A DNA stretch of 36,255 bases from positions 1-36,255 of the IMG/VR virus record IMGVR_UViG_2563366853_000005. One strand, given 5' to 3'. Shown here in pieces: positions 32,858-36,255 of the stretch. The first letter of the stretch is position 1, and each line of letters begins with the position of its first letter. The DNA is from a virus (lineage: Duplodnaviria > Heunggongvirae > Uroviricota > Caudoviricetes). The position numbers and the translations under genes were made by a program. The notes beneath the pieces were generated by a model. It was not told where the DNA came from, did no database searches, and saw only the letters and a program-made list of their open reading frames with translations.

Positions 32858-33112
32858 TTAAACAAAATCTCTTAATGGTTTACCTGATTCAATGCGCTCA
32901 ATTGCATCGTTAATGGCCATGTATGCGGCGTGATCACCTGCATAGCGTGCGCATTCCTGTAGTGACTTTAATCCGCTGATAGTATCGCTTTTTGCTTCCG
33001 ATAAAGGTTTCACCGTATTTAATGCATCACGGGCATTATTATCTATGAGTCGGTGTATGATAAGAGTGTAGGCCGAGGCTATCTCTACCATGTTTTTTGT
33101 CGTTGTTGCCAT
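32858..33112 (-). CDS. hypothetical early protein (84 aa)
   Basis: ORF in the early operon. Confidence 0.5.
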   Translation of the reverse strand: MATTTKNMVEIASAYTLIIHRLIDNNARDALNTVKPLSEAKSDTISGLKSLQECARYAGDHAAYMAINDAIERIESGKPLRDFV

Positions 33113-33115
33113 TGG

Positions 33116-33466
33116 TTAATTCCCCCGTGGATGCTGAAAACTACGTCCTGCAATTAAGCGGTCAACCGTGCGTAGCGCTTCGTACAATGTAAAATCCTGT
33201 CCGAACTGATTGTCGCCGCAGCTCAATGCAAAAATGCGGTTTCCGGTAAACGGATTGCGTGGGCATTTGTGGACCACAATTCCAGCTTTCTCAATCAGCC
33301 AGGTATGCTCGCCGATTTGTTTTACTGGGTAGCCATCCGGCGTTGCGTGTGTTTCGCTCAGGCTGTAGCGAGAGTTGCTACGTGATGCACTGGTAGCGAA
33401 ACGGTTAGCGTGGCGTTCCGCACCGTTGCGGAAGCGCGGCTGTGAAGAATTGCGCTGTAGTTTCAT
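33116..33466 (-). CDS. hypothetical early protein (116 aa), first gene of a sub-operon
   Basis: ORF with a divergent intergenic region upstream (33467..33601). Confidence 0.5.
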   Translation of the reverse strand: MKLQRNSSQPRFRNGAERHANRFATSASRSNSRYSLSETHATPDGYPVKQIGEHTWLIEKAGIVVHKCPRNPFTGNRIFALSCGDNQFGQDFTLYEALRTVDRLIAGRSFQHPRGN

Positions 33467-33601
33467 ATTAAAACTCTGTACCTTCGGTAAGGTGTACTCG
33501 TGTCACCTTGTATTGATTTGTGGTATTTTTTGTGTGTCTAGGACTTGGACTGGCCGGTTCAGGTCCTGGCTTATGTTTAATTAAATTGTTTAGAGGTTTT
33601 C

Positions 33602-33793
33602 ATGTCAGAAGATAAAAAAGTTGTTAATTTGTTGAGTGACCTTAGTGCTGCTCTGGATAACATTAACCCTCCTAGGGTAAAAACGACGGGTGATAAAGAC
33701 GCATTAAACGCAGAGATTCATATATTACTGGCGTTAGTAACTGACAAAATTCAGCGTAAATACCCACCTGTCACACAACTGGTTGATTTTTAA
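33602..33793 (+). CDS. small hypothetical protein (63 aa) on the opposite strand, AT-rich
   Basis: AGAGG RBS 5 nt upstream; convergent with the 140-aa gene; hairpin 9 nt after its stop. Confidence 0.45.
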   Translation: MSEDKKVVNLLSDLSAALDNINPPRVKTTGDKDALNAEIHILLALVTDKIQRKYPPVTQLVDF

Positions 33794-33799
33794 TTTGAT

Positions 33800-34222
33800 T
33801 TATGCCGGGCTGCTCCCGGCATCTTCTAGCTGCCATAATGTCTCGTCACCTGATAGAGCAAAACGAAATGAGTGAAGTATATCCTCCCGAGAGAAGCTCA
33901 CGGCTACAGCTGCGGGAAAGTCAAATATAATCCCACCTTCATTTTTAAAACGATTACGCAATTGATAGGCTATCGGTTTGATTTGTGCAGGAAGAGTATC
34001 TATATCTCTTCCATTGACAACAGAATCTTTGTTTTCAAGTACTGATTTAGCGATTAGATATAGATGCCAGTAACTGGTTACAATTGTTACTCCTGTGATG
34101 TGTCGTAAATTAATTGCAATTCGTCCGTTATTATGTTTTTCCGCAAGGTATTTCAGGTTATCAATTAATGCTTGGTCATTTTTTGAAATAGTTATTGTGA
34201 AATCTGACGTGTTTGTTTTCAT
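33800..34222 (-). CDS. hypothetical protein (140 aa), AT-rich moron immediately downstream of cox
   Basis: AGAGG RBS about 11 nt upstream; starts 4 nt after the cox-like stop; visibly AT-rich. Confidence 0.6.
   Translation of the reverse strand: MKTNTSDFTITISKNDQALIDNLKYLAEKHNNGRIAINLRHITGVTIVTSYWHLYLIAKSVLENKDSVVNGRDIDTLPAQIKPIAYQLRNRFKNEGGIIFDFPAAVAVSFSREDILHSFRFALSGDETLWQLEDAGSSPA
33802..33822. other. GC hairpin between convergent genes (possible bidirectional terminator)
   Basis: AT-GCCGGG-ctgct-CCCGGC-AT; overlaps the last codons of the 140-aa gene; no clear U-run. Confidence 0.35.
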
Positions 34223-34226
34223 ACGA

Positions 34227-34748
34227 TTAGTTGCCTCTGTTGTTTCTGAGTTGGTTCAGTTTTGAGCTTCTGCCTGTATAAACTCGCTTACCGTTAATGG
34301 TCTGGCAGTCTTCTTTATTAGCTGGAGAGAACTTCCTTTTCTGGCGGTCATACGTCCAGTAACTTTTCCAGTTGTGCCATTCTGGGGGCTCGTGCTCTGG
34401 TAGCTCATCAGCCAACTTGTCCCACTCTTTGGCGTTAAACCACCATACTCCGTCTGAGTTTTCATCTTCCGGGTTTGTGCGCGTCTTGTGTCCCGGCATT
34501 TGACCGCGATGAATGGCTACGCGCAGTGCAGATTTTGTTAGCCCAATATATGCCGCGCCTTTTTCCAGAGAGCAAAGCCCGGCGATCGGACCATCCAGCC
34601 GTAAAGTCGCTCCTTTTTTGTAGGAACGCTTTTTCTTGTTTTCTTCGTGTTCGTCGTCGTTGGCGGCATCAATGGATCCGCTGAGTGTGTCACTTTCCTG
34701 AAGTGGTTGGTGGTCAGATAACTCTTTATCGGCAATGAAGTCCCGCAT
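34227..34748 (-). CDS. cox: Cox/Apl/AlpA-type excisionase-like HTH regulator with an acidic N-terminal extension (173 aa)
   Basis: HTH segment AAYIGLTKSALRVAIHRGQMPG followed by a Trp-rich region (GVWWFNAKEWDKL) as in excisionase-family proteins; AGAGGA RBS 7 nt upstream; divergent from the C repressor gene. Confidence 0.6.
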   Translation of the reverse strand: MRDFIADKELSDHQPLQESDTLSGSIDAANDDEHEENKKKRSYKKGATLRLDGPIAGLCSLEKGAAYIGLTKSALRVAIHRGQMPGHKTRTNPEDENSDGVWWFNAKEWDKLADELPEHEPPEWHNWKSYWTYDRQKRKFSPANKEDCQTINGKRVYTGRSSKLNQLRNNRGN

Positions 34749-34851
34749 TTGTTATCCTCTTGCGTTGGTGCGCTTGTTGCGCTTTGTGATGGTTTGTTTT
34801 GGTTTGTTTTCTTCACCATGTGGTGAAGAATGAAAAGAGGATACTCATCGT
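34749..34851. promoter_or_regulatory. immunity switch region between cox and C (candidate operators and face-to-face promoters)
   Basis: Tandem perfect direct repeat GGTTTGTTTT at 34791-34800 and 34801-34810; adjacent palindrome CTTCACCA-TG-TGGTGAAG at 34811-34828; P2 C is known to bind direct repeats flanking the early promoter. Confidence 0.6.
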
Positions 34852-35193
34852 ATGGTGAACATGTCAAGAGATTACGCCAAAAAACTAAAGGCGATCAGAA
34901 ATGCGGAAAAACTTACACAATCTCAGTTTTCGCAAGTAACGGGGGTTTCTGTAGGGACTATAGGAAATTATGAGTCTGGATATAAACCTGCGCGAATTGA
35001 GGTTGTAGAAAAAGTAATCCAAGTCGAGCGATTCGAAAAATACACTATGTGGATACTTCACGACAAAACATTTCCCGCTGCCGGGCAGGTTGCACCGGCT
35101 CTCTCTCTTGATGGCTCTATTCAGTCGGAGGGCGATCAGGTTTCAATCGGCATTACCCAAAAATCACCCCGATCAGGCCGCAATGTTGGCTGA
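34852..35193 (+). CDS. C: immunity repressor, P2 C-type
   Basis: ...LTQSQFSQVTGVSVGTIGNYESG... and FEKYTMWILHDKTFPAAGQVAPALS parallel P2 C (LSRQQLADLTGVPYGTLSYYESG..., FTKYTLWFMTNQIAPESGQIAPALA). Confidence 0.8.
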   Translation: MVNMSRDYAKKLKAIRNAEKLTQSQFSQVTGVSVGTIGNYESGYKPARIEVVEKVIQVERFEKYTMWILHDKTFPAAGQVAPALSLDGSIQSEGDQVSIGITQKSPRSGRNVG

Positions 35194-35262
35194 CTCTACA
35201 CATTGAGCGAATTACATATCGCAAGGAGTGTTTAGTTAATTTATCCGTTGGAGGGGCTAATC

Positions 35263-36255
35263 ATGTCGATTAAGCAACTCAAAGACGGACGTTATCAGGT
35301 CGATGTCAGACCGCAGGGGGCGGAAGGAAAGCGGATTCGAAAAATCTTTGCCCTGAAATCAAAGGCTCAGGAGTTTGAGAAGTATGTGTTACAGAACTTT
35401 CATGACAAGCCATGGCAGGCTAAGCCAGCTGATCAGCGGCGATTATCAGAGCTGCTTGATGCGTGGTGGATGCTTGATGGTCGTAATCAGGCTTACGGGG
35501 ATAGCTACAGGGTTAGGCTAGGGAAGGTTGTTCGTGAAATGGGAGATCCTCGCGCCAGTCAGATGACGCGAAAATTTATGCTTGAATATCGGTCAGAGAA
35601 ATTACAGGCTGGATTAATGCCGTCCAGTATTAATCGTGACTTATGCGTACTGTCTACCATGTTCACGGTGCTGATTGAAGCTGAGGTCTTTCACAACGCG
35701 AACCCTGTACGCGGTATACGAAAACTGAAAGTTCAGAACACAGAGATGGCCTTTCTTTCTGATGATGAGATTGAACGGCTTCTTGAGCGACTGGAGGGTG
35801 ATGCGCGTCGTGTTGCCATTCTGTGTCTTTCTACTGGTGCCCGATGGAGTGAAGCATCGGAACTACGTGGAGAGCATATCGTTGGCAACCGGGTGACGTT
35901 CTTTAACACCAAAAACGGAAAATCCCGTTCGGTTCCTGTGGCGGATTCGGTCGTGCCTCTGATTAAAACCCGTCGAACGGGGTTATTGTATCAGGTTGAT
36001 TATCTGAAGTTCCGGGAGATTCTTCAGGAGGTGAAACCGGATTTGCCGAAGGGGCAGGCTACGCATGTCATGCGTCATACATTTGCCACACACTTTATGA
36101 TGAATGGCGGAAATATTGTTACGTTGCAACGAATCCTGGGGCACGCAACGATTCAGCAAACAATGACGTACGCTCATTTTTCGCCGGACTTCTTACAGGA
36201 CGCGATCAACTTTAATCCGCTGGCTGAAAGTGTCCATAAACTGTCCATCGATTAG
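35263..36255 (+). CDS. int: tyrosine integrase, P2 Int family (start at ATG 35263; track start 35248 is TTG)
   Basis: MSIKQLKDGRYQVDVRPQG aligns to the P2 Int N-terminus (MAIKKLDDGRYEVDIRPTG); catalytic region ...HVMRHTFATHFMMNGGNIVTLQRILGHATIQQTMTYAHF with the conserved R, H-x-x-R and Y; GGAGGGG RBS 5 nt upstream; stop TAG at 36253-36255. Confidence 0.9.
   Translation: MSIKQLKDGRYQVDVRPQGAEGKRIRKIFALKSKAQEFEKYVLQNFHDKPWQAKPADQRRLSELLDAWWMLDGRNQAYGDSYRVRLGKVVREMGDPRASQMTRKFMLEYRSEKLQAGLMPSSINRDLCVLSTMFTVLIEAEVFHNANPVRGIRKLKVQNTEMAFLSDDEIERLLERLEGDARRVAILCLSTGARWSEASELRGEHIVGNRVTFFNTKNGKSRSVPVADSVVPLIKTRRTGLLYQVDYLKFREILQEVKPDLPKGQATHVMRHTFATHFMMNGGNIVTLQRILGHATIQQTMTYAHFSPDFLQDAINFNPLAESVHKLSID

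Follow-up and report, generated by a model that had tools for sequence, protein, structure and literature searches.

Predicted dyad-symmetric repressor sites and candidate Cox boxes in the P2-type immunity switch of a prophage of the UTI89 PhiECO5 type

Introduction

The closest described relatives of the immunity switch reported here are found in the P2 family of phages. The C repressor of P2 forms a symmetric dimer resembling proteins that bind palindromes, yet the operators of the P2 family have been described as non-palindromic direct repeats (PMC2995052). In WPhi, 10-bp half-sites that are 34 bp apart (32 bp at the locus reported here) flank the −10 element of the early promoter Pe (PMC1904268). 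P2 Cox binds at least six phased boxes per target; those at the switch overlap the promoter Pc and lie between the operators and cox (PMC3936717). Like Cox, the Apl protein of 186 binds direct repeats that are spaced by one turn of the helix, at att as well as between the early promoters (PMC7498355). Prophage PhiECO5 of Escherichia coli UTI89 was tentatively placed in immunity class IX by Nilsson et al. 2011, who left its operators and function undefined and judged C-cox spacers to be unalignable; a larger Cox "group 2" has also already been noted there (PMC3448106).

In this report, we analyze the region between divergent C and cox-like genes in a 36,255-nucleotide stretch of DNA (IMG/VR record IMGVR_UViG_2563366853_000005), hereafter the window. 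This 103-bp gap is the lysis-lysogeny control region of an already catalogued P2-like prophage type.

Results

The genes on either side of the gap encode a P2 C-family repressor and a Cox-family protein (Table 1), as a preliminary description of this DNA had proposed, and the region is a P2-type immunity switch. The repressor is homologous to P2 C, matching the P2 C structures PDB 2XCJ/2L49 over amino acids (aa) 4-89 (E 7e-15, phmmer against PDB) as well as HTH_3 and phrog_147 (E 3e-28). Its closest characterized relative is WPhi C, with 47% identity. The cox-like product exceeds the Pfam threshold for Phage_Cox (PF10743, 31.2 bits versus a 27.5 cut-off, aa 58-129), is 31% identical to P2 Cox over 55 aa (BLASTP E 0.003) and has homologues named "Cox family DNA-binding protein" in RefSeq; a search of NCBIfam returned no match for it. 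The genes are ordered as int-C divergent from cox, the first gene of the early operon. Measured from the cox-like start (34748, minus strand) to the C start (34852), the gap has the 103 bp first given for it. The C start at ATG 34852 is kept in all the immunity types compared, and a start at the second ATG (34861) was rejected since that codon, unlike 34852, is not conserved in other types. The second ATG aligns with the start of P2 C and overlaps the TTGACA −35 element of the predicted Pe.

Table 1. Coordinates of genes, promoters and sequence elements in and around the immunity switch
Feature	Position	Strand	Details
Next early gene	33800..34222		Without family match
cox-like gene	34227..34748	-	173 aa, Cox family
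Candidate Pc (weak)	34765..34793	+	-35 TTGGTG 34765-70, 17-bp spacer, -10 GATGGT 34788-93
Four phased 10-bp boxes (candidate Cox boxes)	34773..34812	+	CTTGTTGCGC TTTGTGATGG TTTGTTTTGG TTTGTTTTCT; consensus YTTGT-N5
Perfect tandem repeat	34791..34810	+	GGTTTGTTTT x 2; copies 34791-34800 and 34801-34810
Predicted C operator, palindromic site	34811..34828		CTTCACC-ATGT-GGTGAAG; covaries with C helix; counterpart of P2/WPhi O2
Predicted early promoter Pe	34838..34867	-	-35 TTGACA 34867..34862, 18-bp spacer, -10 TATCCT 34843..34838
Predicted C operator, second site	34843..34860		ACTCATC-GTAT-GGTGAAC; counterpart of P2/WPhi O1
C immunity repressor gene	34852..35193	+	113 aa, P2 C family
P2-type tyrosine integrase gene, 3' of C in lysogenic operon	35263..36255	+	Pfam Int_N, Phage_integrase

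The Cox-like protein had been singled out as unusually long, with an acidic N-terminal extension. Both features hold, but the length is no oddity of this locus: the protein matches the 174-position profile phrog_23196 over its full length (E 4e-116), and the long Cox family comprises 64 database clusters. Family alignments show an acidic N-terminal extension, a core at about aa 58-129 and a conserved Trp-rich C-terminal extension, the last of which the preliminary description did not mention. The core is predicted to be a winged helix. An AlphaFold2 model built from a 14-sequence alignment has a mean pLDDT of 45 and was left out of fold searches; at this low confidence, its order of elements at aa 58-113 (E-H-H-E-E-H) is compatible with a winged helix. 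Comparison of the Cox alignment profile with PDB sequences gave nothing at E <= 0.1. We infer that this protein belongs to the larger Cox group 2 of the literature.

With serS at the start of the window and dmsA at the end of related loci, the prophage is placed between the two genes. The att core is the serS terminator hairpin. The C protein is identical to WP_000247830.1 of the UTI89 prophage PhiECO5, and the switch DNA is 100% identical to that prophage over 132 bp. This immunity region is present in 323 of 5,426 complete E. coli genomes, which include ST131 and UTI89-type pathogens.

Operator-like elements had been reported in the gap, and they are indeed there. The tandem repeat, together with the preceding T, amounts to 21 bp (34790-34810; TRF: period 10, 2.1 copies, 100% matches). 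The palindrome CTTCACCA-TG-TGGTGAAG (34811-34828) extends further than had been noted, to perfect 10-bp arms (TTCTTCACCA / TGGTGAAGAA, 34809-18 / 34821-30), and overlaps the tandem repeat by 2 bp. Each element is very unlikely to have arisen by chance. The 36-kb window holds one perfect 2 x 10-bp tandem versus 0.037 expected from Markov-1 simulations, and three palindromes in which arms of 10 bp or more are separated by no more than 4 bp, versus 0.23 expected. Among 20,000 shuffles of the T/G-rich spacer, such a tandem was found in 0.035%, palindrome arms of at least 8 bp in 0.115%, and both in none. The gap and its right edge also contain two elements absent from the preliminary description, an imperfect second copy of the palindromic site (34843-34860) and a leftward continuation of the tandem repeat as phased YTTGT boxes, back to 34773.

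For comparison, switch regions with long-Cox homologues were taken from E. coli, E. albertii, Yersinia enterocolitica, Salmonella and Serratia, giving 12 distinct spacers. These loci were gathered by exact-protein look-ups; scanning genome contigs with the Cox alignment yielded one locus only, in E. albertii and of P88 type. The predicted Pe, which would start near 34831 and read toward cox, has its −35 element within C codons 4-6, and its −10 element and the C Shine-Dalgarno sequence are reverse complements. In every one of the 12 loci the top minus-strand candidate fits the pattern TTGAC(A/G)-18-TA(T/A)NNT and occupies the same position (scores 10.9-14.9); its score in the window is 12.8 versus 6.6 for the best recurrent Pc candidate. 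This layout mirrors the P2 GenBank annotation, which puts the −35 where C starts, with O1 inside the spacer and O2 following the −10.

The position of Pc is much less marked, and sigma-70 scoring over the 12 loci gave no strong, universally conserved candidate. The weak candidate listed in Table 1 has an upstream TG at 34785-86 and a predicted start near 34801. It recurs at the same position in half of the loci (6/12), its −10 is poorly conserved, and in the Yersinia locus L009 there is a TATAAT 3 bp upstream of that −10. Its position relative to the cox ATG resembles that of the annotated, also poor, Pc of P2 and, if it is right, its transcript would overlap that of Pe by ~30 nt, as with the face-to-face Pe and Pc of P2. 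We infer from this that Pc may lie at ~34765-34801. Alternatives, for example TTGTTT-16-AAGAAT (34804-34831), were rejected: transcripts from them would begin within the C ribosome-binding site, and their sequences are not conserved from type to type.

The comparison also shows that the switch is made of two modules, Cox with the tandem-repeat side and C with the 18-bp sites, which vary independently between loci. In L001 (P88/ST131 type), where Cox is 99% and C 73% identical to the window's, the tandem-repeat side is retained but the two 18-bp sites have given way to others, the replacement operator being GATAACC-N4-GGTTATC. Conversely, in the Yersinia locus L009 (Cox 72%, C 96%) and in the Salmonella loci L016 and L017 (Cox 59-62%, C 82%), only the YTTGT cores remain of the tandem side, and the arms of the 18-bp sites (C[T/A]TCACC / GGTGAAG) are kept together with the window's recognition helix VSVGTIGNYESGY. 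The boundary of the exchangeable immunity module falls at the right edge of the tandem repeat.

Read in another register, the tandem repeat is boxes 3 and 4 of the YTTGT array. TTTGT-N5-TTTGT occurs once in the window, at this site (0.15 expected), and the array yields the two top triple-box scores in the window (72 kb scanned). Nearly every main-group sequence retains the YTTGT cores in register; the 3' half of the boxes is variable. The 62 bp adjoining cox show 78.5% pairwise identity between distant pairs versus 60% at synonymous-like third positions of cox, which implies selective constraint. The 103-bp spacer contains no TTAAA and hence no match to the P2 cox box consensus TTAAA(G/C)NC(A/C). 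The most distant Cox group (Salmonella L014 and L018, 50-53% identity) has a 10-bp tandem of its own in the same place (GGCTTATGTC GGCTTATGCA); covariation of box and Cox recognition helix is not established in these two loci, in which the motifs overlap (TTGTC).

In P2, a Cox site is annotated between the attP core and the int 3' end, and the P' Int arm sites overlap the int stop. In the relatives, the terminal part of int contains the Int arm-type sites TGTCCATA and TGTCCATC, and the equivalent att arm directly follows the int stop codon with three phased boxes, TTTGTGTTAA TTTGTTCCCC CTGTTTTGGC. Scored with a matrix derived from the switch, a test formalized after the pattern had been noticed, this arm has triple-box scores of 13.9-17.2, within the top 7e-5 of background (Bonferroni ~0.007 in two loci). 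The match is weak in L033 (Bonferroni 0.07) and, with a strict matrix, absent in the Salmonella loci L027 and L030. K-mers common to the att arm and the switch are enriched in five of six loci (p 0.002-0.04), including an 11-mer, TGTTTTGGCTT, in L001; those of L027 are not significant. We lean toward the view that the YTTGT boxes are the binding array of the long Cox, which would repress a weak Pc. The earlier suggestion of Cox operator sites in this region is plausible, the best candidate being the tandem repeat within the phased array, to which Cox would bind.

The boxes could instead be kept as core or upstream elements of Pc, or as an unstructured CA-rich cox mRNA leader (AAAACAAACC x 2) that would promote translation or stability of cox mRNA. 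We regard this as unlikely, though it is the alternative that survives best. The array encloses both the −10 and the start of the candidate Pc, and the predicted Pe leader folds at its 5' end into a hairpin, the palindrome, after which a CA-rich stretch remains single-stranded as far as the cox ribosome-binding site (MFE -22.6 kcal/mol, z -5.6). The region is conserved, and since the T/G-rich boxes lie in the cox 5' leader, their conservation could operate at the level of RNA. However, a leader role explains neither the exact 10-bp phasing nor the boxes in the att arm, which are outside the cox leader and at the position of the P2 Cox site. Promoter and leader roles would be compatible with Cox binding, as the Cox boxes of P2 likewise overlap Pc.

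It is less probable still that the perfect tandem reflects recent replication slippage without a function of its own. Box 4 is the least conserved of the four, with relatives showing GGCTTGTAAA, AGTTTGTAAT, GATTTGTCTT or AACTTGTCAA as the second copy, and the right edge of the repeat coincides with the module boundary described above. Yet 8 of 10 distinct main-group sequences retain the YTTGT core and 10-bp register of box 4 (L013 and L017 have TTGC instead of TTGT), and the whole region evolves more slowly than synonymous-like sites, so it is only the perfection of the copy, and not the box itself, that may be accidental.

The other element, the palindrome, pairs with the copy at 34843-34860. 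The first site lies at about +4 to +21 of the predicted Pe transcript, with arms that extend over 34809-34830, and the second fills the Pe spacer and overlaps the C start codon. Their centers are 32 bp apart, and they are identical at 12 of 18 positions (shuffle p 0.005). In the 7-N4-7 frame the dyad symmetry is 7/7 for the palindrome and 4/7 for the second site, a poor value that counts against reading the latter as a dyad operator. All 12 loci have such paired 18-bp sites, the first just to the right of the tandem repeat and the second 31-34 bp further on. Dyad scores in relatives are 4-7/7 at the first site, leaving aside the type C loci, whose dyad is not captured by the fixed frame, and 4-5/7 at the second. 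The second site was compared at fixed geometry, automatic best-dyad picks having been dropped as spurious. Paired sites share 9-16 of 18 positions within a locus versus 3-10 between unrelated specificity types, and the within-locus match is significant in 10 of the 12 loci (shuffle p <=0.007), those for which it is not being L020 and L005.

These sites follow the repressor. Six recognition-helix variants pair with six arm sequences: VSVGTIGNYESGY with TTCACC-N4-GGTGAA, LSLATIRNYESGQ with GATAACC-N4-GGTTATC, LSLSTIRNYESGQ with ATCCCC-N4-G(G/A)GTAT, IP(V/M)NTQRYYETGR with TGTCGA-N4-TCGACA, VSYGFLKQYESGH with GTTACC-N4-GATAAC, and LSITTVKSYEGSK with GTAGTT-N4-AACTAC. The five loci that have the window's helix show constant arms, but no two of them share a central 4-bp sequence (ATGT, CTGT, GTGT, TTAT and GCAA). 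Constant arms around a variable center are the usual signature of a site for a helix-turn-helix (HTH) dimer. That the palindrome and its copy change with the C recognition helix and flank the Pe −10 indicates that they are operators to which C would bind. The gap had been said to contain both kinds of element, direct and inverted repeats; both are present, but they are partly one system, the two predicted C sites being direct repeats of each other and each internally dyad-symmetric.

The P2 analogy, which the framing of the preliminary description invites, would make the tandem 10-bp repeat the C operator and leave the palindrome for something else, for example Cox. The window C is a P2 C homologue, and the C proteins of P2, P2 Hy dis and WPhi bind direct repeats (PMC1904268, PMC2995052). 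However, the repeat is unchanged between heteroimmune prophages that share Cox and differ in C, and it is retained, either exactly or as YTTGT cores, despite a different C helix, while the palindrome and its copy switch with C. Moreover, its copies are adjacent (10 bp) rather than 22-34 bp apart and lie ~21-40 bp downstream of the Pe start instead of flanking the Pe −10. Because the repeat survives the exchange of C, it is, as judged from this comparison, not a C operator; the covariation data contradict the P2-like assignment, which we consider very improbable. The same data contradict, as the least credible possibility of all, a palindrome acting mainly as an RNA hairpin (stabilizing the 5' end of the early transcript or attenuating Pc read-through) and not as an operator: the very 5' end of the predicted Pe transcript is expected to form a 9-bp stem, but the second copy sits in the Pe spacer, which is not transcribed, the arms vary in sequence with the repressor helix and do not just preserve base pairing, several types have a downstream site that is only 5/7 symmetric yet repeated in the spacer, and no Rfam family matches (33000-36255, E <= 1).

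Discussion

The elements of this switch are likely to be assigned in the opposite way to what analogy with P2 suggests. Overall, the region is probably a P2-type switch of the UTI89 PhiECO5 type in which C acts on two 18-bp sites and Cox on the YTTGT array. According to this model, Pe would fire leftward into cox. C would occupy two directly repeated 18-bp sites that are three helical turns apart and bracket the Pe −10, most likely as one symmetric dimer per site because each site has 7-N4-7 dyad symmetry, and its occupancy would block Pe. The long Cox might in turn polymerize along one face of the helix over the four-box array, covering the spacer, −10 and start of the weak rightward Pc, which would shut off C and int. 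On a similar candidate array in the att arm next to int, Cox would direct excision.

What is mildly new here is the occurrence of dyad-symmetric operators in a P2 C-family system, together with a candidate Cox-box motif; this is otherwise an ordinary P2-type switch. It is conceivable, although we would stop slightly short of favoring it, that the repressors of this P2 C-family clade (113-115 aa, associated with a long Cox, in E. coli, Yersinia, Salmonella and Serratia) bind as symmetric dimers to direct-repeated 18-bp dyad sites, with a Cox that recognizes the new YTTGT box. If this is true, these repressors would use the canonical binding mode for which the P2 C crystal structure seemed built and which P2 itself does not use, and they would provide a natural series of at least six helix/operator pairs from which to read the recognition code of the family. 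In that case, the conserved Trp-rich C-terminal domain might also add to Cox a function that is absent from P2 Cox. Since P2 C is a standard symmetric HTH dimer acting on non-palindromic direct repeats, a relative with dyad operators offers a simple comparison. Furthermore, knowing the operators of an immunity region that is common in E. coli helps predict heteroimmunity and inducibility of prophages.

Comparison with known systems places the locus as follows. UTI89 PhiECO5 has the same integration site (serS/dmsA), the same C and the same switch DNA, with no difference at the level of sequence. Phage 186 has a CI of 192 aa, whereas the repressor here, at 113 aa, is of the P2 C type and not of the CI type. 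The mode of binding that we propose, one symmetric dimer per dyad site on two direct-repeated sites, is that of C.Esp1396I and P22 c2-type HTH dimers, binders of palindromes that P2 C is noted to resemble (PMC2995052); the sites of C.Esp1396I are spaced 15 bp apart rather than 32 bp, and homology is claimed for the HTH fold only. Non-palindromic half-sites are the hallmark of the seven P2-type classes studied, and those found here are of a different kind. The organization in WPhi is similar, with two repeats about three helical turns apart flanking the Pe −10 and a TTGACA −35 that overlaps the start region of C. However, the WPhi half-sites (GTCACCAATA) have been described as plain direct repeats, whereas each site is dyad-symmetric here, and WPhi has a different integration site and a short Cox (90 aa) without detectable similarity to the Cox reported here.

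P2 itself differs in several dimensions. Its operators are 8-bp non-palindromic repeats (GTTTAGAT) 22 bp apart, compared to 18-bp dyad-symmetric sites 32 bp apart. Its Cox boxes read TTAAA(G/C)NC(A/C) in place of the candidate YTTGT-N5, and its Cox (91 aa versus 173 aa) does not have the N- and C-terminal extensions. Its C has 99 aa versus 113 aa, and its C-cox spacer 114 bp versus 103 bp. Nevertheless, the plan is the same in both: int-C divergent from cox, a homologous C, a Pe −35 at the start of the C gene, a pair of repressor sites of which one lies within the Pe spacer and the other shortly after the −10, and phased direct repeats on the cox side of the operators. A candidate for a similar array is present in the relatives where P2 has its annotated Cox site, in the arm that separates the att core from the int 3' end.

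Results

In this prophage, the exchangeable immunity module begins at the right-hand end of the tandem repeat and reaches roughly codon 80 of the repressor gene C (coordinates of this and other features are tabulated below). The heteroimmune types of the window and of L001, a related locus of the P88/ST131 type, have int in common, as well as the tail at the C terminus of C (APALSLDGS...SGRNVG), which places the mosaic boundary within the repressor gene. A hybrid operator pair is found in the switch region of L020, a related locus from E. coli, where the site downstream of Pe—the predicted early promoter toward cox—is of type B (GATAATC-GTAC-GGTTATC) and the spacer site is type D-like (AATCCCC-AAAT-GAGTATC). 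Because 1–2 residues separate the type B recognition helix from that of type D, the two specificities may overlap.

The same 9-mer, in inverted orientation, forms the ribosome-binding region of cox and that of C, and the Shine-Dalgarno sequence of C is the reverse complement of the Pe −10 (TATCCT), which therefore gives one stretch a dual role. The predicted Pe leader has a minimum free energy of −22.6 kcal/mol (z −5.6). With a Pe start site near 34831, the operator palindrome would open the early transcript as a 9-bp 5′-terminal hairpin, and this hairpin could have mRNA stabilization as an additional role.

The best-conserved part of the long Cox protein across genera is its C-terminal extension, which ranks ahead of the winged-helix core. 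Length and sequence both vary in the acidic extension at the N terminus. Phased YTTGT boxes, which are candidate Cox boxes, also form a third cluster, and it ranks third in the window by triple-box score. It lies within a 330-bp gap in the early region, ~70–100 nt 5′ of a 63-aa ORF, and is followed by a hairpin with a 14-bp stem.

The prophage is located between serS and dmsA. Its att core is the terminator hairpin of serS, and the terminator is therefore regenerated on integration; in the related loci L001–L006, the core is found ~85–105 bp past the int stop. An IHF-like sequence adjoins the second pair of P2-type Int arm sites, a pair located in the arm near serS.

Features of the prophage and its integration site, in window coordinates
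Feature	Sequence	Position	Remark
serS		1-1293	first gene of the window
att core	AAAGCGCCTGCGGGCGCTTT	1311-1337	
Second Int arm-site pair	TGTCCATA, CGTCCATC	~1383-1402	opposite arm, close to serS
Third YTTGT cluster	CTCGTGTCAC CTTGTATTGA TTTGTGGTAT TTTTTGTGTG	33497-33536	+ strand
Hairpin		33538-33569	
63-aa ORF		33602..33793	+ strand
Cox C-terminal extension	EPPEWHNWKSYWTYDRQKRKF...	34227-34370	aa 117-173
Ribosome-binding 9-mer	AAGAGGATA	34753-34761, 34835-34843	
Immunity module		~34808 to ~35090	
Putative 5′ hairpin		34809-34831	minus-strand RNA
Int arm sites, P2 type	TGTCCATA, TGTCCATC	36231-36238, 36242-36249	within final codons of int

Discussion

By analogy with P2 Cox, which acts at the PLL promoter of P4, the third YTTGT cluster could be a further Cox target. 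The integration site is shared with PhiECO5, the UTI89 prophage, and the two arm-site pairs together with the IHF-like sequence match the layout of P2 attP.
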